64,000 nucleotides of DNA, taken from positions 17,360-81,359 of the forward strand of contig DUQF01000013.1 in the NCBI GenBank assembly GCA_012837965.1, read 5' to 3'. The translations under genes and the position numbers were made by a program. Positions within the stretch are counted from its first letter, which is position 1, and each line of letters starts with the position of its first letter. Below are positions 5,553 to 23,390 of this stretch, in pieces. The notes beneath the pieces were generated by a model. That model was not told the origin of the DNA and ran no database searches. It saw only the letters and a list, made by a program, of their open reading frames with translations. Source of the stretch: Clostridiales bacterium (lineage in GTDB: Bacteria; Bacillota; Clostridia; Christensenellales; Aristaeellaceae).

Positions 5553-6486
5553 TTTCATACTCCTTTAGTAGTGTTCGTATTTTTTTACTGCGTGAATCGC
5601 TGATACTATCAGTCTGCTCATTGGACATGCAATAGGTAGATAATAAGCTGTCAACTTGGTTAACTGAAAAGGATAAGATTCTATTTTCAACCCCCATCCG
5701 AATATTAGACCAAGCTCTAATAGTTTCTTCTTGATACAGGCGACGTGCATGTGTTAAAAGTCCTAATGAACGCCAAACCGCATCGTACAAAGAAGATTGC
5801 TGATTAGAAAAAATATTATTTGCGGCAGCTTTTTCTTTTTCAGTTAAAGCCGAAGCTGCTAGCTGTAGGCGTGCAACACCGTCCTTTTCCGGTGTATCAA
5901 TTGTGCTTAAGAAGTACAGGTTTCCCTCTTGCCCAGCTCCTAATATTTTTGCTTTTACTAAGCTTGACTGGAAGTTTCTTTTGGCCAATTCACTTAAATT
6001 GTGCTCTTTACGAAGTGCAGACAAAACCGGTAGATGCAACAAAGTAAATATGCGTATACCACTACCCGAGTCCCCATATCGTGCCGTCAAATAGCCAGTT
6101 CCCGATAAAAAAGCAGCTTCATGTTCTTGAAATAGCTTTGATTCAACTTTCCTTGCCTGTTCTAAAGCATCATTGAAATTGTCGTTTGTCGTTACAACGG
6201 ACAATCCATTCTCTGCATTAACCAATATTTGAGTATTCTCACTCAATCTATATATATGCATTATTTTCGACTGTCCAGCTCCAAACAACTCAAAGGGAAG
6301 TTCTTTGAGAATAAAATTCTCTGATTGTTTACTAACAACATCCAATGAAAGCGCCTGCCTTAACCAAGATAAGGACATTTCGGCTTCTTCCTCGGTCATT
6401 TTATTAGGAAATGGTAGTCCAGCATAGTTTCGTAGAATAGCAACTCCTTGCGTAAATACTAATCTATTTGACATCGCCCTCTTCAA
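5527..6486 (-). CDS. mcsB: McsB-like protein (protein arginine kinase / ATP:guanido phosphotransferase family), highly divergent
   Basis: It lies between mcsA and clpC. Recognisable remnants are AILRNYAGLPFP and GSGIRIFTLLHLPVL (compare GTGLRASVMMHLPAL). The start is ambiguous: TTG at 6486 or ATG at 6474. Confidence 0.65.
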   Translation of the reverse strand: MKRAMSNRLVFTQGVAILRNYAGLPFPNKMTEEEAEMSLSWLRQALSLDVVSKQSENFILKELPFELFGAGQSKIMHIYRLSENTQILVNAENGLSVVTTNDNFNDALEQARKVESKLFQEHEAAFLSGTGYLTARYGDSGSGIRIFTLLHLPVLSALRKEHNLSELAKRNFQSSLVKAKILGAGQEGNLYFLSTIDTPEKDGVARLQLAASALTEKEKAAANNIFSNQQSSLYDAVWRSLGLLTHARRLYQEETIRAWSNIRMGVENRILSFSVNQVDSLLSTYCMSNEQTDSISDSRSKKIRTLLKEYENASNGTFD

Positions 6487-6913
6487 CTTTCGTTAAGTGA
6501 TTGATATGGTCACGAATCATGGCGGCTCGTTCATAATTTTCAAGAACAATTGATTCCCGCAACAAATGCTTCCAATGCTCAAGATTGGTCTTTTTTTGAT
6601 TTTCATAGGTAGAAAACATATCGGTTTTTGTGTTCTGGAGCGCTAAAACGGCCTCATAGCACTTAGGACAACCCATGTTAGTATTTTCATCAATCTCCTG
6701 AAAGCTTGTATGGCAATAGGTACATGTCAGCTTAGACTTTTGAGGAATGGTTTTAACTTTTTTATTAACACGTAAAGACATAAACGCTTTCATAAAAGTT
6801 TCCTGTGCTTGCGCAGCGCAAGTTGAACAGACAGCTCGGGTGATCAACCGACCATTTTGAAATATTTGAAAATGAATAGTGGCTTTCTTTTGGGAACAAA
6901 TTTCACATTTCAT
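6464..6913 (-). CDS. mcsA: McsA (zinc-finger and UVR-domain activator of McsB)
   Basis: It has CxxC pairs (CEICSQ ... CSTCAA, CTYCHT ... CPKCYE) and a C-terminal UVR motif (LENYERAAMIRDHINHL). The ATG at 6913 is preceded by AAGGAG with a 7-nt spacer; the ORF track extends to 6940. Confidence 0.8.
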   Translation of the reverse strand: MKCEICSQKKATIHFQIFQNGRLITRAVCSTCAAQAQETFMKAFMSLRVNKKVKTIPQKSKLTCTYCHTSFQEIDENTNMGCPKCYEAVLALQNTKTDMFSTYENQKKTNLEHWKHLLRESIVLENYERAAMIRDHINHLTKVEEGDVK

Positions 6914-7385
6914 TTTCGTTCTCCTTTTCTCTTCGAGCAAGAATGGTTAAAAGCATGTTTCTCAAAATTTCAGTTCTTAAACTATTTTTCATTGCAGTTG
7001 CAATGGGCACGCTAAGAGCCTGGTTACTTGTTGCTGAAATAATCAACTCACTATCGGATTTACTAACCAATTCACGGTCTTCAAGTTCGGCACATAATAC
7101 TTTTACATCTCTTTGGCTCATTGGTTCGGATAGATAATTTTGCATTAAATACTGCATATAATCACAGCTTTGTGAGTGAAGGCGCTTAATACGGATGCTT
7201 CCTCCCCCGCCACGATTACTGTTAATTAAATAACCTGATTCAGGAGAAAACCTGGTCGTTAAAACGTAATTTATCTGTGAAGGTGAGCAACGAAAATATG
7301 AAGCCAGCTCATTGCGTTGAAGTTCTACCTCATCTTCAAAAAACATATCTCGGATAAATTGTTCAATAATATCGCTTAACTTCAT
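6903..7385 (-). CDS. ctsR: Class III stress gene repressor CtsR
   Basis: 160 aa reading MKLSDIIEQFIRDM ... ELASYFRCSPSQINYVLTTRF ... NRGGGGSIRI. This includes the winged HTH and glycine-rich loop of CtsR. Confidence 0.9.
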   Translation of the reverse strand: MKLSDIIEQFIRDMFFEDEVELQRNELASYFRCSPSQINYVLTTRFSPESGYLINSNRGGGGSIRIKRLHSQSCDYMQYLMQNYLSEPMSQRDVKVLCAELEDRELVSKSDSELIISATSNQALSVPIATAMKNSLRTEILRNMLLTILARREKENENEM

Positions 7386-7526: not shown

Positions 7527-8624
7527 ATGTCCGCTATAACATATCAATGCCCGTCTTGCGGAAGTTCGTTGACCTACGATGGTCGAGCATCAGAAATGAG
7601 TTGCGGTCATTGTGGCAATCGTTTTTCGATAGAAGCATTGCAAGCCTACCAAGGGACATTAAATGATGAAGCAAGGAGCGAAGTGTCTTCTTCGTGGACT
7701 GAATCCGTTTTAAGCGCAGACGACAGTTCTTTTACGTCGGCTAAAGCCTATCACTGTAATAATTGCGGAGCGGATTTAATGACCGATGAAACGACCGTCG
7801 CTTCTTCCTGTGCTTTTTGTGGCAGTCCCGCGGTCATTCCGTCCCAATTTACAGAAAGTACTTTTCCGGCAAAAATCATTCCCTTTCTTATTACTGAAGA
7901 ACAAGCGCAAAAGATTTTTAAAAACTACTTTCAAAAAAAGAAGCTTTTGCCAAAAATCTTCAGAAAGAATAATCGCATCGATAAAATACGTAAGCTATAC
8001 GTGCCGTACTGGCTTTTCTCCGGCATCGCCTCTGGAGATATAACATACAATGCTACTAAGGTAAATACGCGCCGAGAAGGAAATTATCGGGTTACAACTA
8101 CAAGCCATTATTTATTGCGACGGGCGGGAACGCTTGATTTTAACAGTCTTCCGGTTGATGCGAATTCTCGCATTCCCAATGAAGTAACCGAATCCATTGA
8201 GCCTTATGATATGAGCGCTTCCCTCCCCTTCTCCTTTCCTGTTCTTGCGGGTACTTTAGCTGACAGAGCAGATGTGGATGCTGAAGTTTGTAAACAAAGG
8301 GCAGATGAACGCATCGCTAGAAGTGTCACTTCTGCGCTTAACTCGACAACCACAGGCTATTCTTCCGCAGTACCCAGAACATCAAAGATTCATGTACCAA
8401 ACGGTGTTAGCGAGGGAGCCCTGTTTCCTTTGTGGCATATTACTACAAAAAAAGAAGATAAGGTCTATTCTTTTGCCATTAACGGACAAACTGGTGAATA
8501 CACCTGTAATATACCATACTCTACTAAATCAGCATTTGCCTGGTTTATATCCCTCACTTTAGGCTTTACTTCTGTCGGCAGTTTCATCTACTGGTTGTTA
8601 TACATCTTGGGGGTTATTGTATGA
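7527..8624 (+). CDS. Double zinc-ribbon protein with a C-terminal transmembrane anchor, function unknown
   Basis: Two CxxC ... CxxC ribbons (CPSCGS ... CGHCGN and CNNCGA ... CAFCGS) are followed by a ~230-aa domain and a terminal hydrophobic helix (AFAWFISLTLGFTSVGSFIYWLLYILGVIV). Confidence 0.6.
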   Translation: MSAITYQCPSCGSSLTYDGRASEMSCGHCGNRFSIEALQAYQGTLNDEARSEVSSSWTESVLSADDSSFTSAKAYHCNNCGADLMTDETTVASSCAFCGSPAVIPSQFTESTFPAKIIPFLITEEQAQKIFKNYFQKKKLLPKIFRKNNRIDKIRKLYVPYWLFSGIASGDITYNATKVNTRREGNYRVTTTSHYLLRRAGTLDFNSLPVDANSRIPNEVTESIEPYDMSASLPFSFPVLAGTLADRADVDAEVCKQRADERIARSVTSALNSTTTGYSSAVPRTSKIHVPNGVSEGALFPLWHITTKKEDKVYSFAINGQTGEYTCNIPYSTKSAFAWFISLTLGFTSVGSFIYWLLYILGVIV

Positions 8625-9349
8625 AAAAGATGATAATTATTCTTCTCCTACTCATGTTCTTATTTATTTTTGCTTCTTATGCTGAAGTTTATGATTTGGC
8701 TAACTTGTTGTCTGAGCAGGAAGAAAGTTTGCTCAATAACCAAATGGAGCAAATCAAGCAAACCCATAAACTGGATATGATGCTGATTACAACCAACGAA
8801 AGCTTGGGAAAGGAAGCCGACTTGTTTGCCGCTGAATTCTACGAAACAAAACGCTCTCAACCCTTACCCGAGGAAGCTTTAATTTTCACAATCTGCATGG
8901 ATATCCGAAACTATGGGGAGGCTGCCCGCGGTAAAAGAATTGAAAAAAAGTTTACCTATAGCAATGACTCTGTCCTTGATGATATAATTGCCCCTCATTT
9001 GACTCAAGGCGATTATTTTGAAGGATTCAAAAGTTATCTGCAGTATGTTGATGAACAACTAACCTTTCGCTTACCCATTCCAATCATTGTAGTTGTATCT
9101 GCCACAATTTCAGTGATGATTGTCCTTATGATGATTAAGCAAATGAAACACGCAAAGCCTAAAGATACTGCCAATCAATACGCACCGCTCAATACTTTGA
9201 ACCTTTCAAGGCGTGAGGATATTTATCTTTACAAGGCCGTCAAACGTGAACGCATCCAAAAGAGTAATTCCTCTGGTTCCTCCGGTAGTGGTAGGTCTTT
9301 TTCTTCTTCAAGTGGCAACTCTTATGGAGGACGCAGCGGTAAGTTTTAA
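8621..9349 (+). CDS. TPM-domain protein (YgcG-like) with transmembrane helix and Gly/Ser-rich tail
   Basis: It has a signal/anchor, then a TPM-like domain (VYDLANLLSEQEE ... MLITT), a TM segment (IPIIVVVSATISVMIVLMMI) and an SSGSSGSGRSFSSSSGNSYGGRSGKF tail typical of YgcG proteins. An ATGA overlap joins it to the upstream gene. Confidence 0.65.
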   Translation: MKKMIIILLLLMFLFIFASYAEVYDLANLLSEQEESLLNNQMEQIKQTHKLDMMLITTNESLGKEADLFAAEFYETKRSQPLPEEALIFTICMDIRNYGEAARGKRIEKKFTYSNDSVLDDIIAPHLTQGDYFEGFKSYLQYVDEQLTFRLPIPIIVVVSATISVMIVLMMIKQMKHAKPKDTANQYAPLNTLNLSRREDIYLYKAVKRERIQKSNSSGSSGSGRSFSSSSGNSYGGRSGKF

Positions 9350-9427: not shown

Positions 9428-9455
9428 TCCCAGCAGAGTATGCTGGGATTTTGTT
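9428..9455. terminator. Bidirectional terminator between the TPM gene and rnfB
   Basis: The stem tcccagca / tgctggga has a gagta loop. The plus strand has a T-rich tail (attttgtt) and the minus strand has ctttgttt. Confidence 0.7.
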
Positions 9456-9485: not shown

Positions 9486-10274
9486 TTAACTAACGGTTAT
9501 ACAGTTGTTTGGACACACTTTGATACACTCTTCACACTGGGTACATTTTTCTTGATCGATTGTAGCAAAACCGTCGGCAACATGAATGGCATCAAAAGCA
9601 CAGGCTTTTTCACAGCGTTTGCATCCGATACAAGCATGAGTACACGCGGCACGTGCTTCTCTTGCTTTGGCTGAACTGCGACAGCGAACAGCTACCGTTG
9701 CGCTTCTTGGTACAAGCTCAATTACGTGACGGGGGCAAACATTCACACACATGCCGCAAGCAGTGCATTTTTTATCATCAATGACGGCAAGGTCATTTTC
9801 AATGGTTAAAGCATCAAACTTACAAACATTCACGCAGTCGCCAAGGCCGACGCAGGAATACTGACAAAGTTTAGGACCGCCAGCGAAGGCAACCGCCGCA
9901 GCGCAACTTTCAACACCACTATATTCATAGCGGATACCAGCGATTTCATTGGCGCCCTGACATAGCACACGAGCAACCTTTGGTTCTGATGCAGTTGCAC
10001 TAACACCCATAATTTCTGCCAAAGCTTGCACTGTTTTTGACCCACCAGGCGGGCAACCGGTGATAGGCGCTTCGCCCTTGGCAACAGCTTCGGCAAAGCC
10101 ATCACATCCGGGATATCCGCAGGCGCCGCAGTTAGCCCCTGCAAGATTATCGCGGATAAGAGCGACTTTTTCATCAACAGGAACCGCAAAGACCTTATCA
10201 GCAAAGCTTAAAATAACCCCAAATACAATTCCTAGACCGCCCATCACAAGAAGGGCATTCAGAATATCTAACAT
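9486..10274 (-). CDS. rnfB: Rnf electron transport complex subunit B
   Basis: It has an N-terminal TM helix, a CGACGYPGCDGFA cluster motif and several CxxCxxCxxxCP ferredoxin motifs. It is the last gene of the rnf cluster. Confidence 0.9.
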   Translation of the reverse strand: MLDILNALLVMGGLGIVFGVILSFADKVFAVPVDEKVALIRDNLAGANCGACGYPGCDGFAEAVAKGEAPITGCPPGGSKTVQALAEIMGVSATASEPKVARVLCQGANEIAGIRYEYSGVESCAAAVAFAGGPKLCQYSCVGLGDCVNVCKFDALTIENDLAVIDDKKCTACGMCVNVCPRHVIELVPRSATVAVRCRSSAKAREARAACTHACIGCKRCEKACAFDAIHVADGFATIDQEKCTQCEECIKVCPNNCITVS

Positions 10275-10284
10275 CTTTCCCTCC

Positions 10285-10875
10285 TTATTTCACTAAACCA
10301 GTAAAGCCCATAAAAGCAACCGCCATCATGCCTGCTATAACAAGACTGATGGAAAAGCCACGGAAGGGCTTGGGAATATCGGAAGTTTCCAAACGCTCAC
10401 GAACGCCAGCCATCATAACGATAGCGAGTAGGAAGCCTAAGGCACCAAAAACACCGCTTAATACTGATTCGATCAAGCCATAGCTTGACTTGATATTCAG
10501 TAAGGCAACACCTAAAACCGCACAATTTGTGGTGATTAGAGGCAAATAAATACCAAGCGCGTTATATAGTGCAGGCAGTGATTTTTTCATGAACATTTCA
10601 ACAAATTGCACCAACGCCGCAATAATGAAAATAAAAGCGATCGTGTCCAAATACTTCAGATCGTACGGTTCAAGAAGATAAGTATACGCTACCCAGGTAA
10701 AGGCAGAGGCCAAGCCCATAACGAATGTAACCGCCAAGCCCATACCGATTGAGGTTTCAACTTTTGAAGAAACACCAAGGAAAGGACAGTTGCCCAAGAA
10801 ACGAGAGAAGATATAGTTGTTACATAGAATGCAATCAACCATAAAAAGAAAGAAACCAACTTCAGCTAATCTCAT
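10285..10875 (-). CDS. rnfA: Rnf complex subunit A
   Basis: A polytopic membrane protein reading NNYIFSRFLGNCPFLGVS ... LPLITTNCAVLGVALL, which is the RnfA/NqrE signature. The start is uncertain: 10875, or the internal ATG at 10842. Confidence 0.85.
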   Translation of the reverse strand: MRLAEVGFFLFMVDCILCNNYIFSRFLGNCPFLGVSSKVETSIGMGLAVTFVMGLASAFTWVAYTYLLEPYDLKYLDTIAFIFIIAALVQFVEMFMKKSLPALYNALGIYLPLITTNCAVLGVALLNIKSSYGLIESVLSGVFGALGFLLAIVMMAGVRERLETSDIPKPFRGFSISLVIAGMMAVAFMGFTGLVK

Positions 10876-11497
10876 GTTCTGCCTCCTTCTTTTTGGAGCT
10901 AAACTTTTCAGTTACTCCATTAATTATACCAAGAGCTAATCCATATACGATAAAGCCACCTGGAGCTAAAATTAGTAACAGCATTGGCTGAAAATGCGCA
11001 CCAAACACTTGATAGTCAAAGATTGTTCCAGCGCCAATCACTTCACGGATGGCACCAATGAGGAGCAGGCCCAACGTAAAACCGAGACCCATACCAAGAC
11101 CATCCATGGCAGATTCACCAACATTATTCTTGCTTGCAAAAGCTTCAGCTCTGGCAAGAATGATACAGTTAACCACAATAAGTGGAATGAATATACCTAA
11201 GGATTCATACAGTGAAGGTAAGAAAGCTTGCATTATCATCTGTACCATGGTAACAAAGGTACAAATCACAACAATAAATGCAGGAATACGAACTTTATTG
11301 GGAATAAAGTTTCTCAATAAAGAGATAACCACGTTAGACCCCACTAGAACGAACGTTGCAGCCAAACCCATACCCACGCCATTAATAGCGCTGGTGGTAA
11401 CAGCAATAGTTGGACAGGTCCCTAAAACTAAGCGGAATACTGGGTTTTCTCCAAAAAGTCCATTGGTAAATACCTTTCCAAGTTTATTTTTTGACAT
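10862..11497 (-). CDS. rnfE: Rnf complex subunit E
   Basis: It reads NPVFRLVLGTCPTIAVTT ... IPLIVVNCIILARAEAFA, the RnfE/NqrD signature. It overlaps the rnfD end by 14 nt. Confidence 0.9.
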   Translation of the reverse strand: MSKNKLGKVFTNGLFGENPVFRLVLGTCPTIAVTTSAINGVGMGLAATFVLVGSNVVISLLRNFIPNKVRIPAFIVVICTFVTMVQMIMQAFLPSLYESLGIFIPLIVVNCIILARAEAFASKNNVGESAMDGLGMGLGFTLGLLLIGAIREVIGAGTIFDYQVFGAHFQPMLLLILAPGGFIVYGLALGIINGVTEKFSSKKKEAEHEIS

Positions 11498-12425
11498 TCT
11501 TTTTCACCTCCCCATAAACTTTGCGCTTGGTATAGCGGTCGATAAGAGGCGTCAAACAGTTCATAAACAAAATCGCATAGGTGACGCCCTCAGGATAGCC
11601 GCCCCACTTACGGATTACAACAACAATCACCCCGCATAAAATGCTGAAGATTGCCTGCCCAACTTTAAGCATGGGTGTTGTTACATAGTCGGTCGCCATA
11701 AATACGGCACCAAAGAGAACGCCTCCGGTTAAAACAGTGTTTAACGGATCGTTCCCGACTATCAAGGAAAAGACAACGACAGTTCCAATAAACAGCGTGG
11801 GAATAAGCCAAGTAATGGTCTTAGTAAACAAAAGATAGGCGAGACCAAGCAAAATCGCAATTTTAGCCACTTCTCCGATAGCGCCAGGTACGTTGCCAAT
11901 GATAAGATCCCAAGTGGAAAAGGTTGATGATAAAGGCGTTGCAGCTGCCACGGTATCAACGCCAACCTTCGCTGTAGAAGAAAGCATCGCACGAATAGGC
12001 TCATAAGATTTGGTCATCAGTGCTGGCCAAGACGCAAGTAATACACCACGAGCAAATAGCGCCGGGTTCATGAAATTCTGCCCTAACCCGCCAAAGAGCT
12101 GTTTAACCAGAATAATAGCGATGGCAGAACCGAGTGCCGGCATCCAAAGTGGTACAATACTTGGCAGGCTTAATCCTACAAGTAAACCGGTTACTGCTGC
12201 GGAAAGGTCAAAGACAGTGACCTTTTTTCGGGTCAACAACTGCCACATAAGCTCACACAGCACTGCGCTAAGCGTAGATACTAATAGTACTAAAGCTGCG
12301 CGCTTTCCAAAAAAGTAAAGACCACAAAGCGTTGTTGGGAGTAAGCTAATCAACACGTTGCCCATCAGAGAGCGCGTCGTTTGCTTATCCACAATATGTG
12401 GTGCTGGAGATACACGTAAAGTCAT
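11484..12425 (-). CDS. rnfD: Rnf complex subunit D
   Basis: A 313-aa polytopic NqrB/RnfD-family protein. The putative flavinylation motif is DTVAAATPL. An ATGA-type overlap joins it to rnfC. Confidence 0.9.
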   Translation of the reverse strand: MTLRVSPAPHIVDKQTTRSLMGNVLISLLPTTLCGLYFFGKRAALVLLVSTLSAVLCELMWQLLTRKKVTVFDLSAAVTGLLVGLSLPSIVPLWMPALGSAIAIILVKQLFGGLGQNFMNPALFARGVLLASWPALMTKSYEPIRAMLSSTAKVGVDTVAAATPLSSTFSTWDLIIGNVPGAIGEVAKIAILLGLAYLLFTKTITWLIPTLFIGTVVVFSLIVGNDPLNTVLTGGVLFGAVFMATDYVTTPMLKVGQAIFSILCGVIVVVIRKWGGYPEGVTYAILFMNCLTPLIDRYTKRKVYGEVKKNVKK

Positions 12426-13747
12426 GCTTTTTTCCTCCTTACAGCAAGAGTATCTTTACCAAGCTTAAAGGTTGCCGTTAATCTGCGTTTTGCGGGACAC
12501 ACGAATGAACAAGCACCACAAAGAATACAATCTTCAAGGCCACTTTTTTCGGCATCGTCCAGACGATCCTGAATAAGCAGTCCACGCAGTTCAACAGGAT
12601 TGAGCCTTGTTGGGCAAACGTCCACACAACGTGCGCAGCGAATACAGTTGGTTTCTTCGGCAAGCTTAGCTTCCTTTTGAGATAGAACAACAAAGCCGTT
12701 GTTTTGCTTAGATAACGGTACTTCGTCATTAGGTATACAAACGCCCATCATGCTGCCGCCCACAAAAATTTTACCGGGTTCAGTAGCATAGCCACCGCAG
12801 AATTCGACAGCATCTTTGGTTAATGTGCCGTTTGGTAACAATAAGTTTGCAGGTTCTTTCACTTGTCCGGTGGCAGAACATAGACGCTTAACAAGAGGCT
12901 TTCCCTCATAAACGGCATCAGCTATAGCGCTTACCGTAGCAACATTTAACACAATGGTGTTTATATCAATTGGCAGACCGCCTCTGGGCACCTCACGCTT
13001 CAGCACAGCTTCTATCAGTTGCTTTTCGCCACCTTGCGGATACTTGGCTTGAACCGTAGCAAATTCAATGCCTTTATATTCTGGCACTAAGGCTTTAAGA
13101 GCAGCAATAGCAAGTGGTTTATTATCTTCAACGGCGATAATGCCACGCTCAACATTCAACGACTTTAATACAATTTTAAGCCCTTTGAAAATACTTTCAG
13201 GCCGCTCCATCATTAAGCGTTCGTCGCTTGTAAGAAAAGTCTCGCACTCACAGCCGTTTACGATAATGGTATCAGCTGACTTGCCTTGCGGTATAGATAG
13301 CTTGACATGGGTTGGGAAAGCAGCCCCTCCCATTCCACAGATGCCGGCATTACGAACAATAGAACAGAGTTCTTCGGCTGGAAGCGCCTTGGGATTTGCG
13401 CAGGGATTTAGTTCCACCCATGAATCCTGTTTATCATTTTCAATGGCGATAAAAGGCGAAGGCATTTTGCCAAACATTTGCATAGCGCCCACTTCTTTAA
13501 CAGTACCACTGACGCTTGCATGCACATAAATGCCCCAGTCGCCGCCCGGTTCGGCAATTACTTGGCCTAACTTTACTTGGTCGTCTTTTTTAACAACAGG
13601 CTTTGATGGCGGTCCGATATGTGTATCAAGCGGGATATAGACAACCGAAGGGCTAAAAGGCTTACTTGGTTGATTACCAGTTAACCCCTTCTTCTCATCT
13701 AACTCCTTATAAGGATGAACCCCTCCACGAAAAGTTAATAAGCTCAC
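12422..13747 (-). CDS. rnfC: Rnf complex subunit C
   Basis: 441 aa with an NADH-binding/SLBB-type core (ICGMGGAGFPTH-like: GMGGAAFPTHVKL) and two C-terminal 4Fe-4S motifs (CIRCARCVDVCP, CILCGACSFVCP). Confidence 0.9.
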   Translation of the reverse strand: MSLLTFRGGVHPYKELDEKKGLTGNQPSKPFSPSVVYIPLDTHIGPPSKPVVKKDDQVKLGQVIAEPGGDWGIYVHASVSGTVKEVGAMQMFGKMPSPFIAIENDKQDSWVELNPCANPKALPAEELCSIVRNAGICGMGGAAFPTHVKLSIPQGKSADTIIVNGCECETFLTSDERLMMERPESIFKGLKIVLKSLNVERGIIAVEDNKPLAIAALKALVPEYKGIEFATVQAKYPQGGEKQLIEAVLKREVPRGGLPIDINTIVLNVATVSAIADAVYEGKPLVKRLCSATGQVKEPANLLLPNGTLTKDAVEFCGGYATEPGKIFVGGSMMGVCIPNDEVPLSKQNNGFVVLSQKEAKLAEETNCIRCARCVDVCPTRLNPVELRGLLIQDRLDDAEKSGLEDCILCGACSFVCPAKRRLTATFKLGKDTLAVRRKKA

Positions 13748-13760
13748 GTTCTTCCCTCCC

Positions 13761-15764
13761 TTACTTCACTTCTAAAGCATTGTTGGCTTCATCACCCAAC
13801 AACTGCTCATAAGCCGCATTAATAGCTTGTACAACTGCCTTAGAGGTATACGTTGCGCCACTAATGGCATCAATATCCTCGATGGTAAGCGGAGCCACTT
13901 TGCCAATTAGCATCTGGGCGAATTCCGGTTCTAAAACCTTGGTGCCACGCCCTTCGGTTTCAACAAAGCTATCATCACCAATTATAATATCGGTAATGGA
14001 CTTGTTAGCGTCAAAAGTAACTTTAATAGCCACAGGGCCAACGCCACCCGGCGCGGAAGCGGATACAGTTCCACCTTGGAAAACAGCGCCTGTATCACCA
14101 TTGTTGTTGTCAGCGACGCTCTCTCCGCCGTCATTTTCATCGTCACCGTCTTTGCCATCATTACCCAACAACTGCTCATAAGCAGTATTAATAGCTTGAA
14201 CAACGGCCTTGGAGGTGAAAGTTGCGCCACTAATGGCATCAATATCCTCGATGGTAAGCGGAGCCACCTTGCCAATCAGCATCCGGGCAAATTCAGGTTC
14301 TAAAACCTTGGTACCACGTCCTTCGGTTTCAACAAAACTATCGTCACCAATTATAATATCAGTAATGGACTTGTCGGCGTCAAAAGTAACTTTAACAGCT
14401 ACGGGGCCAACACCGCCCGGAGCGGAAGCAGATGCTGTTCCACCTTTGAAGATAGGTTCGGCATCGTCAGCGTCACTACTGTCGGCACTGTCACCAACAT
14501 CACCGTCAAGGCTATTATCGGTATCATCACTCTTGGTACCGTCATCGCTATCAATAACACCGTTTATATCATCACTTTCTTCATCACTTACTTCGCCACC
14601 ACCACTTAACAGCTGCTCAAAAGCGGCATTAATAGCATCTACAACCGCCTGTGAGGTAATAGTTGCTTTGCTGATAGCATCAATGTCTTTGATGGCAAGC
14701 GGAGCCGACTTGCCAATGAGCATTTGAGCAAATTCGGGCGCTAAAACCTTATCACCAATGCCTGGGGTTTCCGCAAAGCTGTCATCACCAATCTTAATAT
14801 CAGTAATGATCTTGTTATCATCAAAGGTTACTTCAACCACAACTGGACCAGCAAAGCCTTGTACTGACGCAGTCGCTGTTCCGGCAGAGAAAACCATCCC
14901 CCCGGACGATAGCTGTTCAATAGCAACATTGATGGCATCAACCACCGCTTGCGAGGTGATGGTCGCTTTACTAATCGCATCAATATCGTTAATGGTAAGC
15001 GGAGCCGACTTGCCAATGAGCATTTGGGCAAATTCGGGCGCTAAAACCTTATCGCCAATGCCTGGGGTTTCCGCAAAACTGTCATCACCAATCTTAATAT
15101 CGGTAATGGTCTTGTTGTCATCAAAGGTTACTTCAACCACAACAGGACCGGCAAAGCCTTGAACTGATGCGGTCGTTGTTCCTGCCTTAAAGCCACCCAA
15201 GTCAACAGGAGCTTTTAACAGGTCTACTACCTGCTTAACAACGCTATTGACCCCACGGGTAATCGCATTGGTGGTAATAGTAGCGGCAGTAATGCTATCA
15301 ATCGTTGAGTCATCAGCCTCATCGCTTTGCTTAATGACTCTAAGAGGGGCAATCTTGCCTTTGAACTGGTCGGTAAATTTCGGTTCTTTTGCTTTGGCGC
15401 CAAGACCTGCCGTTTCCGCAAAATTGGCTCCACCGACACTAATACCGGTAATTATTCCATCGGGCGTTAAGCCGACAGTCACTTCAATATCACCGCCATA
15501 ACCCTTTGCGGTAATAACGCCTACATAGCCAATAACCTCATCACCTTTTTTACCCACAAAAAGTTGGTCGATGCTTAATTCCTGCTCCCCCTGGAAAGGC
15601 TCAAACTCAGCATCTGCCAATACGGCTTTGCGTGCCTTGTCGGCATTTAAAGCCTCTTGGTCTTTAATGGGGCCTTTAGTGATCAGGTTTGTCCCGGCCA
15701 AGCACAGCGCCGCAACCAACATAATGATTGCAAGTACTAACCAAGCCGGCATTTCCTTTTTCAT
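13761..15764 (-). CDS. rnfG: RnfG-like subunit expanded to five FMN-binding modules (membrane anchor + RnfG core + four extra FMN_bind-type domains)
   Basis: It has an N-terminal TM helix. The RnfG core reads GYGGDIEVTVGLTPDGIITGISV ... FAETAGLGAKA ... DSITAATITT. Four further modules each end in DAIS(K/G)AT(I/F/Y)TS. Start 15764 is preferred (AGGAGG 10 nt upstream); the ORF track starts at 15773. Confidence 0.8.
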   Translation of the reverse strand: MKKEMPAWLVLAIIMLVAALCLAGTNLITKGPIKDQEALNADKARKAVLADAEFEPFQGEQELSIDQLFVGKKGDEVIGYVGVITAKGYGGDIEVTVGLTPDGIITGISVGGANFAETAGLGAKAKEPKFTDQFKGKIAPLRVIKQSDEADDSTIDSITAATITTNAITRGVNSVVKQVVDLLKAPVDLGGFKAGTTTASVQGFAGPVVVEVTFDDNKTITDIKIGDDSFAETPGIGDKVLAPEFAQMLIGKSAPLTINDIDAISKATITSQAVVDAINVAIEQLSSGGMVFSAGTATASVQGFAGPVVVEVTFDDNKIITDIKIGDDSFAETPGIGDKVLAPEFAQMLIGKSAPLAIKDIDAISKATITSQAVVDAINAAFEQLLSGGGEVSDEESDDINGVIDSDDGTKSDDTDNSLDGDVGDSADSSDADDAEPIFKGGTASASAPGGVGPVAVKVTFDADKSITDIIIGDDSFVETEGRGTKVLEPEFARMLIGKVAPLTIEDIDAISGATFTSKAVVQAINTAYEQLLGNDGKDGDDENDGGESVADNNNGDTGAVFQGGTVSASAPGGVGPVAIKVTFDANKSITDIIIGDDSFVETEGRGTKVLEPEFAQMLIGKVAPLTIEDIDAISGATYTSKAVVQAINAAYEQLLGDEANNALEVK
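13764..14453 (-). repeat. In-frame tandem duplication, period 369 nt (FMN-binding modules 4 and 5, SGAT type)
   Basis: 13861-13920 matches 14230-14289 at 56 of 60 nt. The encoded modules are near identical (GGTxSASAPGGVGPVAxKVTFDAxKSITDIIIGDDSFVETEGRGTKVLEPEFAxMLIGKVAPLTIEDIDAISGAT). Confidence 0.9.
14598..15188 (-). repeat. In-frame tandem duplication, period 300 nt (FMN-binding modules 2 and 3, SKAT type)
   Basis: 14701-14880 matches 15001-15180 at 168 of 180 nt. The encoded modules are near identical (ASVQGFAGPVVVEVTFDDNKxITDIKIGDDSFAETPGIGDKVLAPEFAQMLIGKSAPLxIxDIDAISKATITSQAVVDAIN). Confidence 0.9.
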
Positions 15765-15783
15765 ACAGACCATCCCTCCTGAA

Positions 15784-16404
15784 TTATTGCATATTTAAAA
15801 GATGTGAATCGAGTGGACGACCCAACATCTCTTGAGCCAATGAATAGTTACGATTTTTCAGTGCCTCCCTGATAGCAGTACTTGACACAATCAGGCCTTC
15901 AGTGGTCTTGACCGGTGGCACAACAATTAATTGAAGATTTCTTTGATTACACAATTCCCGAAGCTTTACATGGTCAGTTTTTGCAGCAAATCCGAAGCGA
16001 TGATTGTATCCGATAACCAGCGCCTTAACTTGCATGGACTGTAAAAGTAACTTGTCAAGAAAGTCTTCTCCCGACATTTGCATCAGCTGCTTATCAAACG
16101 AACTAAATGCTACCGTATCAACCCCATAATTGAATAAAATATCGGTTTTTTCTTGAAGTGGGGTCAATTCTTGATAGGCTTGATCGGGAAAGAGTATCTG
16201 TGCAGGAGATTGAGTGTACGTATGCACACAAATAAAAAAACCGTCACTCTCTTTTAAAGCCAGAGCGGCATCAATTAAGGCACGATGACCGCAGTGTACA
16301 CCATCAAAGAAACCAAGACATACGACATAATCCTTGCCGCATTCGGGATGCAGCCCCAAAAACTCAATCAAAGCAAAGCACCATTCAATGAATTTTATGC
16401 ACAA
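15784..16404 (-). CDS. Stand-alone FMN adenylyltransferase (FAD synthetase N-terminal domain of RibF/RibC, no riboflavin kinase domain)
   Basis: 206 aa with the nucleotidyltransferase motif GFFDGVHCGH and the C-terminal SSTAIREAL motif. The protein ends about where the kinase domain of bifunctional RibF would begin. Confidence 0.75.
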   Translation of the reverse strand: MCIKFIEWCFALIEFLGLHPECGKDYVVCLGFFDGVHCGHRALIDAALALKESDGFFICVHTYTQSPAQILFPDQAYQELTPLQEKTDILFNYGVDTVAFSSFDKQLMQMSGEDFLDKLLLQSMQVKALVIGYNHRFGFAAKTDHVKLRELCNQRNLQLIVVPPVKTTEGLIVSSTAIREALKNRNYSLAQEMLGRPLDSHLLNMQ

Positions 16405-16429
16405 ATGGTATCATGGAGCACAAAAACTG

Positions 16430-17917
16430 TCAAGGACTTTCACGCTGTGTTGACAGAACTTCTACTGTTTCATCTTGTGATTCTTCCAACAGAAATGATG
16501 AAGAAAATGCCGTCATGACTTGATTGCCTTCATATACGGTTACCTGTGCCCAGTATAGGCCTTTTCCAAGGATATAACCATTTTTATCTTTACCATCCCA
16601 GTAAACTGTAGTGCCAAACTTTGTTTGTGGGCGACTTATAGCATGCAATACGGGTTGAGCAACAATACTTCCCTGCGCATCATAAATGGCAAGAGAATAT
16701 CGACATGGTCTTTCATGAGTAAAAGAAATGCTAAGTTCTTCACCTTTTATAGGATTAAAAATTGATGCCGTAGAAAGCTGTATAGGTTCGTGACAACTCA
16801 TCTCGACGGACAATAGAGTGGAAGCTAAAGGGGCCATCCCATTGTCCACTCTTTCAGCAATAATGAGTACCGCATAGCCACTTTCAATATCCGGAATGTT
16901 TTCTAACGCCAAAGAACGCTCCTGATAACCAGGGCTGGATTTTATATTCTCGTGAATAACTTGCGCACCATCAAATAACCACTGCCCTTCCTTGCGATAA
17001 ACCAATAAATATGAAAGATTGGCAGGTTGATGAAGAATAAAAGAAAAATAGAGCGAGTCGGATTCTTTTGTTAAAATTCGAGAATCAAAAGATAAGCCGG
17101 TAAGTGAACTCTGGATATACGGTACATTTTGAGCTTGAACGACTACAAAGTCGCTATTTTCCGGAAAACTTTGAACACTGGAGGGGCCAAGGTTATCCAT
17201 TAAAAAACGCTTACACTCTTCCAAGGTGATAACACCGTTACGGTTTTCGTCCGCCTGAAAATGAAAGGAGGCAGAGAGCGCCGATTCAAGAGCCAAAGTG
17301 AAGTAGCTACCCCCTAAAAGATTGTTGCTTCCACCAGACCAATTATAGCTAAGTTCATCCGCTCCACTTGATGTAAGGATTATAATATCGTTTGGTATAG
17401 AAACAGGCCGGAGCTTATTCTGCCAGCCGCCCTTCGGAATAATGGATCCGGAATAACAACTATCAAGAAAAAGTATTTTTTGACCAGGTATGGTGGATAG
17501 GTATTTTAACAAATCTTTCCCCCATACCCTATGTTGTATTTTACCGTCAGAAAACAAAAGTGAAAACCAACTATCAGCCCCCATTTTTTCACCATGTGTA
17601 CTGATGTATATAAAAGAAGTGTCGTTTTCTGTTGCACCTTCAAAAGCTGAGTGCAAACTGTTTTGTAATCCAATCTTATCAAGAGGTTGGTTGATAATGG
17701 TGGTCACCTTGTCGTAGCCACGAAGATCATCGGACAGAATGCGCCGCATAGCCTGTGTTGTTCCAAGCGCAGAAGGTGCCATGCTGTCTTGAGTCACAAA
17801 CTCGTCGCAGGCAATTAATAATGCACGTCTGTGTTCAATACTGGAAATATCAGCAATCGTTTGAAGGCTGATCATACAAAGACATAGCAGCAGTCCGATA
17901 TGCCGTCCAAAACGCAA
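16430..17917 (-). CDS. Secreted caspase-family (peptidase C14) protein with C-terminal FlgD-Ig-like domain
   Basis: It has a signal peptide (MRFGRHIGLLLCLCMISLQTIA), a His/Cys dyad context (FIYISTHGE and ILFLDSCYSGS), an EF-hand/dockerin-like DENRNGVITLEE segment, and a C-terminal YSLAIYDAQG ... TVYWDGKDKNGYILGKGLYWAQV. Confidence 0.65.
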   Translation of the reverse strand: MRFGRHIGLLLCLCMISLQTIADISSIEHRRALLIACDEFVTQDSMAPSALGTTQAMRRILSDDLRGYDKVTTIINQPLDKIGLQNSLHSAFEGATENDTSFIYISTHGEKMGADSWFSLLFSDGKIQHRVWGKDLLKYLSTIPGQKILFLDSCYSGSIIPKGGWQNKLRPVSIPNDIIILTSSGADELSYNWSGGSNNLLGGSYFTLALESALSASFHFQADENRNGVITLEECKRFLMDNLGPSSVQSFPENSDFVVVQAQNVPYIQSSLTGLSFDSRILTKESDSLYFSFILHQPANLSYLLVYRKEGQWLFDGAQVIHENIKSSPGYQERSLALENIPDIESGYAVLIIAERVDNGMAPLASTLLSVEMSCHEPIQLSTASIFNPIKGEELSISFTHERPCRYSLAIYDAQGSIVAQPVLHAISRPQTKFGTTVYWDGKDKNGYILGKGLYWAQVTVYEGNQVMTAFSSSFLLEESQDETVEVLSTQRESP

Positions 17918-17971
17918 ATCAACCTCCTAAATACTTTTGTTACAATTATATGAATAACCCTTCCATTCGTC

Positions 17972-17997
17972 AATAATAAACCCGCCCTGAGGCGGGT
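17972..17997 (-). terminator. Rho-independent terminator after the L,D-transpeptidase gene
   Basis: The minus strand reads acccgcc-tcag-ggcgggt followed by TTTATTATT. Confidence 0.7.
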
Positions 17998-18003
17998 GTG
18001 ATA

Positions 18004-19833
18004 TTAAAATCCATTTTCCTTGTTTAATGCATCGATTTCATGCTTACGAAGCGGCGGGTTACAGGATTTACAAGGTGTAAATTGGCTGTAATTCGCATCG
18101 TCTAATTGACCATAGGTAAACTCGCCTTTTAAAGGTAACCAACGGCTCTTAACACCACGACATCTCGCATCGGCATGATAGTTTTTACCGCCAGTGGGAT
18201 TATAATATAGCTTTAAATCATCACTGGGGTAGGCGTGAAAGCGGCCCGGATTATCGTCCCAAACCAGAACCTTAGTATTGACCTTAATATTATTCCACAC
18301 CCAAGCCATGTTAAATCCATCATCGTTGGTTTTGCGCTGGACACGCACACATCCGTGACTTGCTTTAGAACCCAGTAGCCCTTCTTGGGAACTGTAATCT
18401 TTATAGTTGGTTGCCTCGTTAAGAATATAGGGTACTTCATGAATCAGACAACCGCCATTAATACGCATGGCCATGTCGCAGTAAAGGTTACCTGCCCAGA
18501 AGCCGCCTGTACGAGAAATAAGGAGAAATTCTCCAGAGGGGGTTTCATTCCAAGGTTGTTGCTTGGTCGGCAGGCCTGTAGAAATCAACAAAGTAGTGAA
18601 AAGTTTACCTTCCTTAAAAATTAACATTTCTTGGGTTAATTTATCAATCAACATACCAAAATCCGCACGCGGAACAATGGTGTCTAAGCGATTGGTTTCA
18701 ACATAGCCTCGAATCAACTCATCAGAATTGCCCCAGCCGGGCCGGCTTTTGCAATTGGGTCCATAGCTTGAATTAAAAACCTCCACATAAGACCAACCAT
18801 TATCTAATGTTTCTAAGATATTGACACCCTGTGATTCACAGGTGATTTCTCCAAGAACATTGTCATTTTTCATGCTTGTATCGGGCGTTGCCCGCAGACG
18901 ATACATTTCTTTTTGGTCGCCTTTTCGTGTTGCTGCCTTAACAATGGTTATTGGTTGGATCATAACATTCCAAATAGCTTCTTCGTCCATCTTTCCTACA
19001 GGCAAAGTCCAATAGTTGGAGCCCAACTGTTCTTGAGGCACATGCTCTGCGGTGGGGGGTTTATAAGATATGGTTTGCTGTGTTGCTGGTGTGTCAATAA
19101 CATGAGAGGCGTCAAAACCTGTGTCAACCGTTGACCATGATTCTTCAGTTGACTCAACCTGTTCTTGCATTGGCTCGCTTACAGACTCCTGTAGCAAGCC
19201 ATTTGCGTCTCGCATGGTCAAGACAATATGGTGTGGCTGGCTAAAAAAACCAGTTTCATCGCTTAGCTGTACGGAAATCATATGACTGCCGGGCGCTACC
19301 TGCATATTATGATAAAGTCCGTTCCAAGACAGTGTGTTTTCTCCTTGAACGGCTTGTTTTGAAGCAACTGTTTCGATCATTCCGTTGATATTCGCACGGA
19401 ACATTAAAGTTCCCGGCATGTTCACATGGGCTGTAACTGACCATTCCTCCCCCTGTGTTATTTCTGCCGAGCTAATAATCATGGACTGAATGATGGGCGC
19501 TTCTTTACCAATAGTGATAGGGACGCTTTGTTCTGCTGAACTTTGCCTAAAATACAAAACATAGTCCCCGGGAGACATATAACGGTTGTTGTTGTCCATG
19601 CCATTCCAATAAAAAGTATTTGTGCCGACAATAGTAGGAATGCCGGTGAACAAAATCATCTCAATGCCAGAAGACGAAACCAACGCAATTTCGGTTGGAT
19701 CTTCAGTAAAAGACTGAAAAATAATACTCTCGGTTTTTCCGGGACGAATAAAAAGCGGCTGAACTTCAAGTGCGTAGACACTTGAAAATAACAACATGAA
19801 TGAAAATAAGATTGATAATCGTTTTTTTATCAT
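18004..19833 (-). CDS. Secreted L,D-transpeptidase (YkuD domain) with two N-terminal FlgD-Ig-like modules and a Cys-rich C-terminal motif
   Basis: The YkuD catalytic region reads LIHEVPY ... GSKASHGCVRV. The Ig-like modules read NTFYWNGMDNNNRYMSPGDYVLYF and ENTLSWNGLYHNMQVAPGSHMISVQL. Start 19833 has AAGGGGG 6 nt upstream and gives the signal peptide MIKKRLSILFSFMLLFSSVYA. Confidence 0.8.
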   Translation of the reverse strand: MIKKRLSILFSFMLLFSSVYALEVQPLFIRPGKTESIIFQSFTEDPTEIALVSSSGIEMILFTGIPTIVGTNTFYWNGMDNNNRYMSPGDYVLYFRQSSAEQSVPITIGKEAPIIQSMIISSAEITQGEEWSVTAHVNMPGTLMFRANINGMIETVASKQAVQGENTLSWNGLYHNMQVAPGSHMISVQLSDETGFFSQPHHIVLTMRDANGLLQESVSEPMQEQVESTEESWSTVDTGFDASHVIDTPATQQTISYKPPTAEHVPQEQLGSNYWTLPVGKMDEEAIWNVMIQPITIVKAATRKGDQKEMYRLRATPDTSMKNDNVLGEITCESQGVNILETLDNGWSYVEVFNSSYGPNCKSRPGWGNSDELIRGYVETNRLDTIVPRADFGMLIDKLTQEMLIFKEGKLFTTLLISTGLPTKQQPWNETPSGEFLLISRTGGFWAGNLYCDMAMRINGGCLIHEVPYILNEATNYKDYSSQEGLLGSKASHGCVRVQRKTNDDGFNMAWVWNNIKVNTKVLVWDDNPGRFHAYPSDDLKLYYNPTGGKNYHADARCRGVKSRWLPLKGEFTYGQLDDANYSQFTPCKSCNPPLRKHEIDALNKENGF

Positions 19834-19904
19834 AAAGTCCCCCTTTGCACAGTCCATGTTAGCATATACCCATGTTTCAATCAAGTAAACTTTATTAACA
19901 AGTT

Positions 19905-22587: not shown

Positions 22588-23390
22588 GAACGCCTACTTT
22601 CTATGAAAAAATCTTTTCTGGAAAAAGCAAAGCTGGAAACAAAAACAAGTAAAAACCCGAATGTCGCAGCAATAAGGGACATGATCATAGGTAAGTTGTT
22701 GCCAATTACTACCTTGAAAGAATACAGGCTGAATGGTGTAAAATACTTAAGTATCTTGCTGGCGCCGTCTAACCGAGAAAGTCCCTTAATAATTGCCCAC
22801 AGAACAAATAATATATCCAGTAATTTACTAATCTGATCATTGGGAGAAAACACGGCACTAAAAAGATAAAAACCGGTAGGTAAGAAAGAAAAAAGCATAC
22901 TCTGCAATAGGAGAATGTCGATTTGATTAACCGTTTCCCTCCACTGATCAAACACAAGTGGAGCTATACGATATAGTCCGCTGATTAAAACATGTTGACA
23001 CAATACTGAAAATGAAATCGCAACAAATACTGAAAACACAATATTGCTCAACCATTTCTCCGACACAAAAAAGAAACGCGCTTTCTGCCTTTCCATCATC
23101 TGGACATACAGTCTCTTGATACTTAAGCGGATAAAAATCATATTGATTAGAGGGACAACAAAAGCGAACAAAAGCGACGTGAAATAATCCTGCGGATTAA
23201 TTGCCGCATCAATTCCCACAAACCTTGAAAGGGAAGGATTGCTTAGACGCCAAGCTTCAACACCCCGCGGAACACCTTCCACAGGAAGTCGATAGGTAGC
23301 GAAAACTCCCAACACAAAAAGCATACTAATTGCAAGAAAGGGTATCACATAAATTTTGAGCCTTTGCATACGATACTTTATGACACTCAT
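22584..23390 (-). CDS. ABC-2-type permease-like membrane protein
   Basis: 268 aa. An N-terminal TM helix is followed by a loop and five further hydrophobic segments. It is translationally coupled to the NBD-like gene upstream. No specific family was recognised. Confidence 0.45.
   Translation of the reverse strand: MSVIKYRMQRLKIYVIPFLAISMLFVLGVFATYRLPVEGVPRGVEAWRLSNPSLSRFVGIDAAINPQDYFTSLLFAFVVPLINMIFIRLSIKRLYVQMMERQKARFFFVSEKWLSNIVFSVFVAISFSVLCQHVLISGLYRIAPLVFDQWRETVNQIDILLLQSMLFSFLPTGFYLFSAVFSPNDQISKLLDILFVLWAIIKGLSRLDGASKILKYFTPFSLYSFKVVIGNNLPMIMSLIAATFGFLLVFVSSFAFSRKDFFIESRRS

Follow-up and report, generated by a model that had tools for sequence, protein, structure and literature searches.

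The 64,000-nt stretch of DNA analysed here (hereafter the window; contig DUQF01000013.1 of a Clostridiales bacterium) carries on its minus strand an operon for Rnf, the ferredoxin:NAD+ pump that is central to energy conservation in many anaerobes. The RnfG subunit of this operon has a complete RnfG core and, behind it, four further modules of the flavin mononucleotide (FMN)-binding type. Our reading, to which we give somewhat better than an even chance, is that the locus encodes a ferredoxin:NAD+ Rnf ion pump with a multi-flavinylated RnfG as its sole G subunit, and that the tail of extra modules forms a side branch outside the membrane.

A first-pass annotation of the same sequence had already proposed up to five external flavins that link Rnf to an outside partner. 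This is still the best-supported reading, and it agrees with Méheust et al. (2021, eLife 10:e66878; PMC8238504), who reported multi-flavinylated RnfGs in RNF clusters and proposed for them a second electron path to extracytosolic acceptors. However, two of the five modules carry a non-standard acceptor motif (SKAT), so that five covalent flavins should be taken as an upper bound. The annotation's belief that no such Rnf architecture had been described has to be given up, since multi-flavinylated RnfGs in RNF clusters were already presented in that paper.

The rnf operon

Between positions 16404 and 9486 of the minus strand, seven closely packed open reading frames (ORFs) follow each other in the order FAD_syn-rnfG-rnfC-rnfD-rnfE-rnfA-rnfB (Table 1), where FAD_syn stands for a flavin adenine dinucleotide (FAD) synthetase, i.e., an FMN adenylyltransferase. 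The ORF list and the Pfam and NCBIfam assignments thus reproduce the gene order of the first-pass annotation. The products of rnfC, rnfD, rnfE, rnfA, and rnfB each exceed the curated cut-off of their own rnf subfamily or equivalog model. The rnfD gene is unfused, and the cluster is not of the NQR/RNF-like two-subunit type, in which an RnfD-like membrane domain is fused to an NqrF-type NAD-binding domain and RnfC, E, A, and B are missing, as all these five genes are present.

The rnfD and rnfE genes overlap by 14 nt, as can be read directly from the sequence and as had been noticed before. Because of this overlap, there is no gene in the canonical slot between D and E. The operon follows neither of the canonical orders (rnfCDGEAB and rnfABCDGE). 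Instead, its rnfG stands at a non-canonical position before rnfC, and it encodes the only G of a cluster that also encodes rnfC, D, E, A, and B. No FMN_bind ORF other than this rnfG was found in the 64-kb window.

The gaps between the first genes are short. The stop codon of FAD_syn and the start of rnfG are 10–19 nt apart, and 13 nt, with a ribosome-binding site (RBS) in between, separate the rnfG stop codon from the GTG start of rnfC. As for the start of rnfG, AGGAGG lies 1 nt 5' of the ATG at 15773 and 10 nt 5' of the ATG at 15764. This spacing favours the second ATG, and therefore the 667-aa form is the likelier product; it is identical to a database protein (P0001). Residue numbers throughout refer to the 670-aa frame. 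Overall, the gene spacing points to a single seven-gene operon. The gene beyond the terminator-like hairpin at its 3' end is convergent (8621–9349, plus strand), while at the other end another terminator-like hairpin (17980–17997) and a second promoter-like site (17945–17973), both from the consensus scan, set the genes further upstream apart from the operon.

At least nine metagenome contigs, independent of each other, carry the identical protein in the same gene order, and one of them is from a biogas-fermenter assembly. The source can be placed approximately as a Christensenellales-like member of the Clostridia from biogas or anaerobic-digester samples. In addition, the repeat copies within rnfG are only 67–89% identical at DNA level and thus distinguishable, and therefore collapse or mis-assembly is unlikely. 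On these two observations, an assembly artefact was rejected.

Architecture and predicted structure of RnfG

Pfam recognises five FMN_bind stretches (PF04205) in RnfG with an E-value of 2.4e-73, which is the number of modules given in the first-pass annotation. The rnfG model TIGR01947 scores 210.4 bits against a cut-off of 102, with residues 12–180 covering positions 2–183 of its 187. Residues 1–185 therefore read as a complete RnfG, composed of membrane anchor, linker helix, and FMN domain. The AlphaFold2 (AF2) model places a helix at residues 10–51, followed by a β/α domain. The single N-terminal transmembrane helix and the normal RnfG core of the first-pass annotation are both borne out. 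The anchor region aligns with the N-terminal end of the RnfG chains of solved Rnf complexes. In a sequence search, the RnfG chains of two such complexes were matched with E-values of 3.7e-26 (7zc6_G) and 1.4e-21 (9eri_G). Foldseek matched the N-terminal third of the model to the same two chains with 9.5e-12 and 2.4e-11, respectively, at a template modelling (TM) score of 0.69–0.72 on target length. From homology to the solved complexes, we infer that RnfG is extracytosolic and held by its N-terminal hydrophobic helix. A lipobox is not present at the N-terminus, where the sequence A-A-L-C has Leu at position -1 before the Cys, and no CxxCH motif is found in the protein.

The AF2 run, which used a 25-sequence alignment, gave a model with a mean predicted local distance difference test (pLDDT) score of 80.7 and a predicted TM score (pTM) of 0.37. 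It shows five separate α/β modules, each at pLDDT ~90, and disordered segments at residues 189–193, 392–438, and 541–562. Modules 2 and 3 are separated by just 2–3 residues. That is, the model predicts beads on a string without a fixed arrangement between the modules. AlphaFold models of the same beads-on-a-string appearance have been given for multi-FMN proteins in a 2024 follow-up study. As a single bead, module 2 resembles domain 1 of CbFMN4 (8p2b), with an E-value of 4.4e-5 by sequence and a TM score of 0.80 by Foldseek.

The linkers had been described as Asp/Ser/Gly/Glu-rich, and this holds, as the two long ones contain 39% Asp+Glu; both fall below pLDDT 50 over most of their length. Across the family, linkers are acidic, Pro/Ala-rich, and nearly without Lys or Arg. 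The linkers of the window (14085–14603) keep the acidic, non-basic rule, and an Asp/Ser/Gly/Asn-rich spacer replaces the usual Pro/Ala-rich one: Pro+Ala amount to 5%, while the family medians are 24% for Asp+Glu and 42% for Pro+Ala.

Acceptor motifs and module evolution

We have surveyed 182 related proteins with 1010 modules, of which 829 are extension modules. At the acceptor position of the extension modules, Thr is found in 822 of the 829 and Ser in 5 more. The flanking residues, D-A-I-x-x-A-T, are conserved nearly as strongly. In the window protein, the D-A-I-S-(K/G)-A-T motifs that had been noted in the four extension modules are indeed there, as DAISKAT at T271 and T371 and as DAISGAT at T518 and T641. 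The motif of the core, DSITAAT, fits the ApbE motif D-x-x-[S/T]-[G/A/S]-A-T, and TAAT occurs in 38 of 181 cores of relatives.

The SKAT motifs of modules 2 and 3 (window 14961–14972 and 14661–14672; residues 265–271 and 365–371) have a Lys at the Gly position of the motif. Among the 829 extension modules of the 182 proteins, this variant is confined to the window protein. In a model substrate, flavinylation drops to half even when this Gly is replaced by Ala (PMC12052999). Because of this effect and the uniqueness of SKAT, the flavinylation of modules 2 and 3 is uncertain.

Tandem Repeats Finder reports nothing in rnfG, where the copies are 300 nt long, 300–441 nt apart, and 67–89% identical. 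The module copies were instead compared by repeat finding and at codon level. Modules 2 and 3 share 92% amino acid identity, with a synonymous substitution rate (dS) of 0.74 and a ratio of non-synonymous to synonymous rates (dN/dS) of 0.10. Modules 4 and 5 also share 92% identity, with a dS of 0.43 and a dN/dS of 0.10. All four extension modules, those with SKAT included, are thus under strong purifying selection.

Among themselves, the extension modules are 70–92% identical, and no more than 66% to any module of other species. The core, on the other hand, is 60–64% identical to the cores of other species and 34% to its own tail modules. From this pattern it follows that the core is an orthologous RnfG, and that the tail has been expanded, or homogenised, within the lineage.

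Position of rnfG in related genomes

A protein search with RnfG returned 973 matches at E ≤ 1e-10. The best 120 of these 973 are 574–1151 aa long and come mostly from metagenome-assembled genomes (MAGs) of Christensenellales, Clostridia, and 'Oscillospiraceae'. Overall, Christensenellales-like Clostridia are rich in RnfG homologues of 2–11 modules. For a sample of operons that is independent of the form of RnfG, the GTDB species genomes were scanned with an RnfC alignment, and 80 loci were classified; the species of the window itself was not among the matches, the nearest of which is 61% identical. The final counts were taken from the locus listing; the automated classifier had mis-scored a distant-upstream or contig-cut G as 'no linked G'. 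Two loci with runs of N in place of rnfG (L012 and L022) were treated as undetermined.

Immediately upstream of rnfC is where rnfG lies in 35 of the 80 loci, and in this G-first group the complete RnfGs range from one module (~200 aa) to 11 modules (1274 aa, L080). The canonical order C-D-G-E-A-B is found in 29 loci, mostly of Christensenella/Christensenellaceae, with a G of 176–187 aa (mostly 183 aa). In 13 loci, D and E are adjacent and no G was detected, and 3 are undetermined with contigs that end after rnfC or rnfD. The description of rnfG as 'moved to the front' is thus right in so far as the gene precedes rnfC, but this position is nothing peculiar to the window, and one-module RnfGs of ~200 aa have it too (L034, L039, L043, L050, L058, L070, and L081). 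Since a front position also occurs with a single module, relocation and expansion are separable events.

In the RnfC tree, the window falls into a clade in which the order is FAD_syn-G(multi)-C-D-E-A-B wherever it can be assessed. The tree was built by neighbour joining, and G-first and canonical operons are intermixed in it at depth. The most abundant families of homologues, of ~926 aa and ~1028 aa, lie outside rnf operons, and one of their clusters has 214 member sequences. These unlinked proteins match the full-length RnfG model with their N-terminus and are 43–51% identical to the core of the window protein. Their genes adjoin apbE and lie directly downstream of ctsR-mcsB-clpC; unlinked multi-FMN rnfG genes beside apbE were seen in L007, L008, L089, and L090. 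As these gene orders show, rnfG is mobile in this lineage and can occupy the canonical slot, the operon front, or an unlinked place beside apbE.

Eight of the 13 loci without a detected G (L031, L051, L052, L069, L073, L082, L083, and L086) also lack rnfG in the clean sequence of 5 kb or more upstream of rnfC, and the rnfG of such operons is presumably unlinked. One of them, L073, has a second rnfB-like gene (262 aa, ~7778–8566) about 1.4 kb upstream of rnfC and hence the order B-C-D-E-A-B without a linked rnfG. In L012 (9495–9594) and L022 (1910–2009), the expected place of rnfG, just upstream of rnfC, is taken by a stretch of 100 N, and many other loci stop inside rnfG at a contig edge. Apparently, the repeated modules break short-read assemblies, and module counts from MAGs may be underestimates.

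The neighbourhood of the unlinked genes also has a counterpart in the window. In L008, L089, and L090, ctsR-mcsA-mcsB-clpC is followed by rnfG, apbE, a DEAD/MZB helicase gene, and RNase_H_2. The ctsR-clpC block of the window (3108–7385, minus strand) lies just beyond the rnf operon, and after clpC, where the relatives have rnfG-apbE, there is a plus-strand gene for a phage-type integrase (1958–3070, PF00589). The integrase beside clpC hints at a rearrangement at this site (1958–7385).

Association with a monofunctional FAD synthetase

The protein encoded upstream of rnfG matches PF06574 only. RibF models match it at ~14–190 of ~300 positions and below their cut-off; it has no riboflavin-kinase domain, and it is not a bifunctional RibF. 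The motifs GFFDGVHCGH and SSTAIR are visible in its translation. Homologues in the relatives are mostly 173–232 aa long.

All 11 complete G-first loci with a multi-module G have a FAD_syn-only gene directly upstream of rnfG. In G-first loci with a single module, the gene lies either upstream of G or downstream of rnfB, and in several of them (L043, L050, L081, and L087) it follows rnfB immediately. It stands immediately 5' of rnfC in some operons without G (L031 and L052), and it is found within ±10 kb of none of the 29 canonical loci. A Fisher test of this linkage gave p ~1e-6, computed on the automated table with 28 loci scored as canonical and with kinship ignored.

ApbE takes the FMN that it attaches from FAD (PMC12052999), and flavinylation requires FAD at the outer face of the membrane (PMC9973259). 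Because ApbE uses FAD that is delivered outside the membrane, the linkage can be understood as a dedicated boost of the FAD supply. The simplest reading is that FAD_syn serves in this way a complex with up to six covalent flavins, the one of RnfD included. The apbE gene is adjacent to the operon in L015, L030, L032, L045, and L080. In the 64-kb window, we found no apbE (PF02424), no riboflavin kinase, and no EetB-type FAD exporter, and an Rfam scan of the window returned no FMN riboswitch and no other RNA family.

Proposed function

In the known Rnf path, electrons run from ferredoxin via RnfB and the [2Fe-2S] cluster of RnfA/E to the FMN of RnfG at the outer face, and onward via the FMN and riboflavin of RnfD to RnfC and NAD+; the globular domain of RnfG is a mobile switch that swings between RnfA/E and RnfD (PMC12174285). 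For the window, we propose that RnfG would be exported by Sec, and that an ApbE encoded outside the window would then attach FMN from FAD at Thr165 and at some or all of Thr271, Thr371, Thr518, and Thr641, while the co-transcribed cytoplasmic FMN adenylyltransferase would raise the FAD supply. The four tethered modules would hang from the swinging RnfG domain's C-terminal helix. Multi-FMN proteins flavinylated by ApbE have been described by Tong (2023, BBA Adv 4:100097; PMC10339131), and judging from SaFMN3 among them (-184 mV), the potential of the tethered modules would be near that of free FMN. By diffusional encounter, they could take electrons from the RnfG FMN, or give electrons to it, and pass them along the chain. 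The result would be a relay across the Gram-positive wall space, i.e., a side branch of Rnf to extracytosolic acceptors or donors that may run in either direction. If a module is taken as ~3 nm long and each residue of an extended linker as 0.35 nm, our own estimate of the reach of RnfG is roughly 20–45 nm, a length of the same order as a Gram-positive wall. The gene at 24494–28009 on the plus strand, 8 kb from the rnf operon, encodes a pyruvate:ferredoxin oxidoreductase (1171 aa), which is a plausible source of reduced ferredoxin for Rnf.

A bolder version of this reading, which we hold only tentatively and think rather improbable as a whole, sees in FAD_syn-rnfG(multi)-rnfCDEAB a self-contained device for extracellular electron exchange that works without quinones or cytochromes. 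Covalent flavins spanning the wall would wire Rnf to external acceptors or donors, e.g., minerals, humics, or syntrophic partners in anaerobic digesters, and the oxidation or reduction of ferredoxin would then be tied both to redox chemistry outside the cell and to the ion gradient. The number of modules (1–11) would be tuned by rapid tandem duplication, with the FMN adenylyltransferase co-evolved.

Several points weigh against a flavin side branch. The chain may have gaps at the SKAT modules 2 and 3. At a pTM of 0.37 the model gives no fixed flavin–flavin distances, and electron hopping between modules is proposed only. A bulky tail on a domain that swings by ~25–30 degrees per cycle could hinder pumping. 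A second rnfG is possible elsewhere, as only 64 kb of the genome are visible, and these 64 kb contain no apbE, FAD exporter, extracytosolic reductase, wall-anchor domain, or obvious electron partner. Finally, in the literature searched, no Rnf with a multi-flavin G has been studied by experiment.

The alternatives differ in what they make of the tail and of the protein as a whole. The tail may be an electron buffer or an oxidant sink, that is, a surface capacitor for up to 8 extra electrons, or a place where O2 or other oxidants are reduced outside the cell, so that a strict anaerobe is shielded or swings in ferredoxin/NAD redox state are evened out. Reduced SaFMN3 is indeed reoxidised by O2, and its flavins titrate as a single population at -184 mV (PMC10339131). 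Moreover, no partner reductase is encoded nearby, and the module number varies freely between species from 1 to 11, as it would for a dosage-like trait. We nevertheless consider this explanation unlikely: long acidic disordered linkers and the tandem layout suggest reach over mere capacity, the reduction of O2 by flavins outside the cell makes reactive oxygen species, and the fusion of the array to RnfG, where a free array would do, is left unexplained. To explain the tail as a non-redox element, with modules 2–5 largely unflavinylated and serving as a spacer, as a scaffold for wall interaction or assembly, or, as the first-pass annotation had also considered, as a covalent flavin store, is in our opinion very improbable. 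The deviation of SKAT from the ApbE motif would fit it, and the linkers, being acidic, might serve to bind cations or polymers of the wall; for the flavin store, nothing speaks beyond its being conceivable. Yet the acceptor Thr and D-A-I-x-x-A-T are near-invariant over the 829 extension modules, dN/dS is ~0.1, homologous multi-FMN proteins are fully flavinylated on co-expression with ApbE (PMC10339131), and covalent FMN is not retrievable and hence makes a poor store.

A different kind of alternative is that the protein is not the working RnfG, but an extracellular electron-transfer protein beside rnf that resembles PplA, a Listeria monocytogenes protein of flavin-based extracellular electron transfer reportedly described by Light et al. 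in 2018, while a canonical RnfG of ~200 aa is encoded elsewhere. The visible 64 kb of the genome leave space for such a gene, rnfG is mobile in the lineage, and a linked G is missing altogether from some related rnf operons. We give this explanation a poor chance, since residues 1–185 make up an RnfG of full length, anchor helix included, that scores at twice the cut-off of TIGR01947, the core is 41–56% identical to one-module and multi-module RnfGs of front position, and relatives carry one-module RnfGs in that very position. The 13-nt gap to rnfC also argues for translational coupling between the two genes. Furthermore, the unlinked multi-FMN proteins of relatives score as full-length RnfG, and operons without G occur in the same clade; this co-occurrence, at clade level, suggests that the unlinked multi-FMN protein is the G subunit in these relatives too. 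There is no lipobox, and Ndh2, DmkA, EetA, and EetB are not among the neighbours. A PplA-like lipoprotein identity is rejected on the absence of a lipobox together with the full-length RnfG core.

Feature coordinates and neighbouring genes

The coordinates of the operon and of the parts of RnfG are given in Table 1. Just upstream of the operon, two large and probably secreted proteins are encoded on the minus strand (16430–19884). The first (495 aa) matches an Ig-like domain (FlgD_ig) and, weakly, a caspase/C13-peptidase-like one, and the second (626 aa) is an L,D-transpeptidase (YkuD). Both genes are kept beside the operon in contigs of the same species only, not in more distant relatives. 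At 22584–24280 (minus strand), two adjacent ORFs of 268 and 297 aa without a Pfam match lie upstream of an LPG_synthase_TM/GDPD pair, and they are conserved in contigs of the same species.

Table 1 Features of the rnf operon and of the parts of its multi-flavin RnfG, in positions of the window
Feature	Position	Strand	Evidence or remark
Promoter-like site, TTGACA-17-TACCAT with TG extension	16405..16433	-	Consensus match only; likely operon start
Monofunctional FAD synthetase gene, 206 aa	15784..16404	-	PF06574 FAD_syn, E 5.2e-40
rnfG, multi-flavin RnfG; 670 aa if started at ATG 15773, but probably 667 aa with its start at ATG 15764	13761..15773	-	Pfam, NCBIfam
RnfG N-terminal transmembrane anchor and linker helix, residues 10-51	15621..15746	-	AF2 helix H10-51; hydrophobic stretch AWLVLAIIMLVAALCLAG
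RnfG module 1, canonical FMN-binding core, residues 86-184, Thr165 in DSITAAT	15222..15518	-	TIGR01947
RnfG module 2, residues 194-289, Thr271 in DAISKAT	14907..15194	-	hmmsearch envelope; best Pfam FMN_bind stretch 206-286
RnfG module 3, residues 293-390, Thr371 in DAISKAT	14604..14897	-	Motif search, hmmsearch
RnfG acidic disordered linker, residues 391-440, Asp/Ser/Gly/Glu-rich	14454..14603	-	pLDDT <50 over 392-438; composition
RnfG module 4, residues 441-536, Thr518 in canonical DAISGAT	14166..14453	-	Motif search, hmmsearch, AF2
RnfG second acidic disordered linker, residues 537-563	14085..14165	-	pLDDT <50 over 541-562
RnfG module 5, residues 564-659, Thr641 in canonical DAISGAT	13797..14084	-	Motif search, hmmsearch
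rnfC, 441 aa, GTG start, RBS GGGAGGG	12422..13747	-	TIGR01945, 466 bits
rnfD, 313 aa, candidate FMN acceptor in DTVAAAT	11484..12425	-	TIGR01946, 304.6 bits
rnfE, 211 aa	10862..11497	-	TIGR01948, 255.8 bits
rnfA, 196 aa	10285..10875	-	TIGR01943, 258 bits
rnfB, 262 aa, polyferredoxin type	9486..10274	-	NF005503, 257 bits; PF04060 and several Fer4 domains
Terminator-like hairpin 3' of rnfB	9428..9448	-	Consensus match only; likely operon end

Significance

If the side-branch reading is true, Rnf would have a second role in Gram-positive bacteria that are poor in cytochromes, namely as a conduit for electrons to or from the outside of the cell. Christensenellales-like bacteria are common in digesters and guts, and this role would be relevant to syntrophy and electron exchange in both. 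The locus and its relatives form a comparative series, with 1 to 11 modules, with rnfG in the operon or unlinked, and with or without apbE, and the tightly linked FAD synthetase is a new handle for choosing an experimental system. The class has been predicted since 2021. For this window itself, the result is confirmatory and would not surprise a specialist.

The text of PMC8238504 has no mention of a G-first order, of unlinked rnfG-apbE pairs, or of a link to FAD synthetase, and neither the G-first order (rnfGCDEAB) nor the FAD_syn link is described in the literature that we searched. Four things appear to be new relative to it: a G-first order throughout the clade, unlinked pairs of rnfG and apbE, a strict association with a monofunctional FAD synthetase, and the SKAT motif.

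Comparison with known systems

The closest known system is the multi-flavinylated class of Méheust et al., who counted 2081 multi-FMN proteins in 1530 genomes and singled out the Christensenellales (PMC8238504). The window protein has the features of this class, i.e., more than one PF04205 domain, five Thr motifs (two of them the non-standard SKAT), and a membrane anchor. In both cases, an RnfG with more than one FMN_bind domain of the ApbE type is encoded in an rnf cluster of Gram-positive Clostridia including Christensenellales; the protein is predicted to lie outside the cytosol, where it would open a second path from Rnf to external acceptors, a function that is only proposed. They differ in that the highlighted Christensenellales subset of that study carries a multi-heme domain, whereas the window protein has no CxxCH.

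Canonical RnfG, as solved for Clostridium tetanomorphum (7zc6) and Acetobacterium woodii (9eri, chain G), has the same anchor, linker helix, α/β FMN domain, and Thr acceptor. It is 35–37% identical to residues 10–185 of the window protein at a TM score of ~0.7, and the partners C, D, E, A, and B are alike. However, these RnfGs have 187–207 aa and one FMN and are encoded between rnfD and rnfE, while the window RnfG has ~480 extra residues with four more modules after the core, and its gene lies before rnfC.

The tandem FMN_bind domains of ~90 residues and the flexible linkers are shared with CbFMN4 and SaFMN3. Those proteins are soluble as expressed, have no described RnfG core, and are encoded outside rnf operons. 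With PplA, the window RnfG shares a predicted place at the surface of a Gram-positive cell and more than one FMN_bind domain. The domains of PplA are flavinylated by ApbE, depend on exported FAD, and pass electrons outward, as is proposed here for RnfG. On the other hand, PplA is a lipoprotein, and its electrons come from Ndh2 and demethylmenaquinone via EetA/EetB, whereas the window RnfG has no lipobox and would be fed by the [2Fe-2S]/FMN path of Rnf. The locus is not of the Listeria type, as none of the families Ndh2, DmkA/B, EetA/B, and FmnA/B is encoded in the window.

The Rnf of Methanosarcina acetivorans, with its multi-heme cytochrome MmcA, has been cited as an analogy (PMC8238504). There, too, Rnf has an extra extracytoplasmic carrier with several cofactors, which forms a branch to external acceptors. 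The difference is that MmcA bears hemes on a separate subunit, whereas in the window protein the putative carrier consists of flavins fused to RnfG itself.

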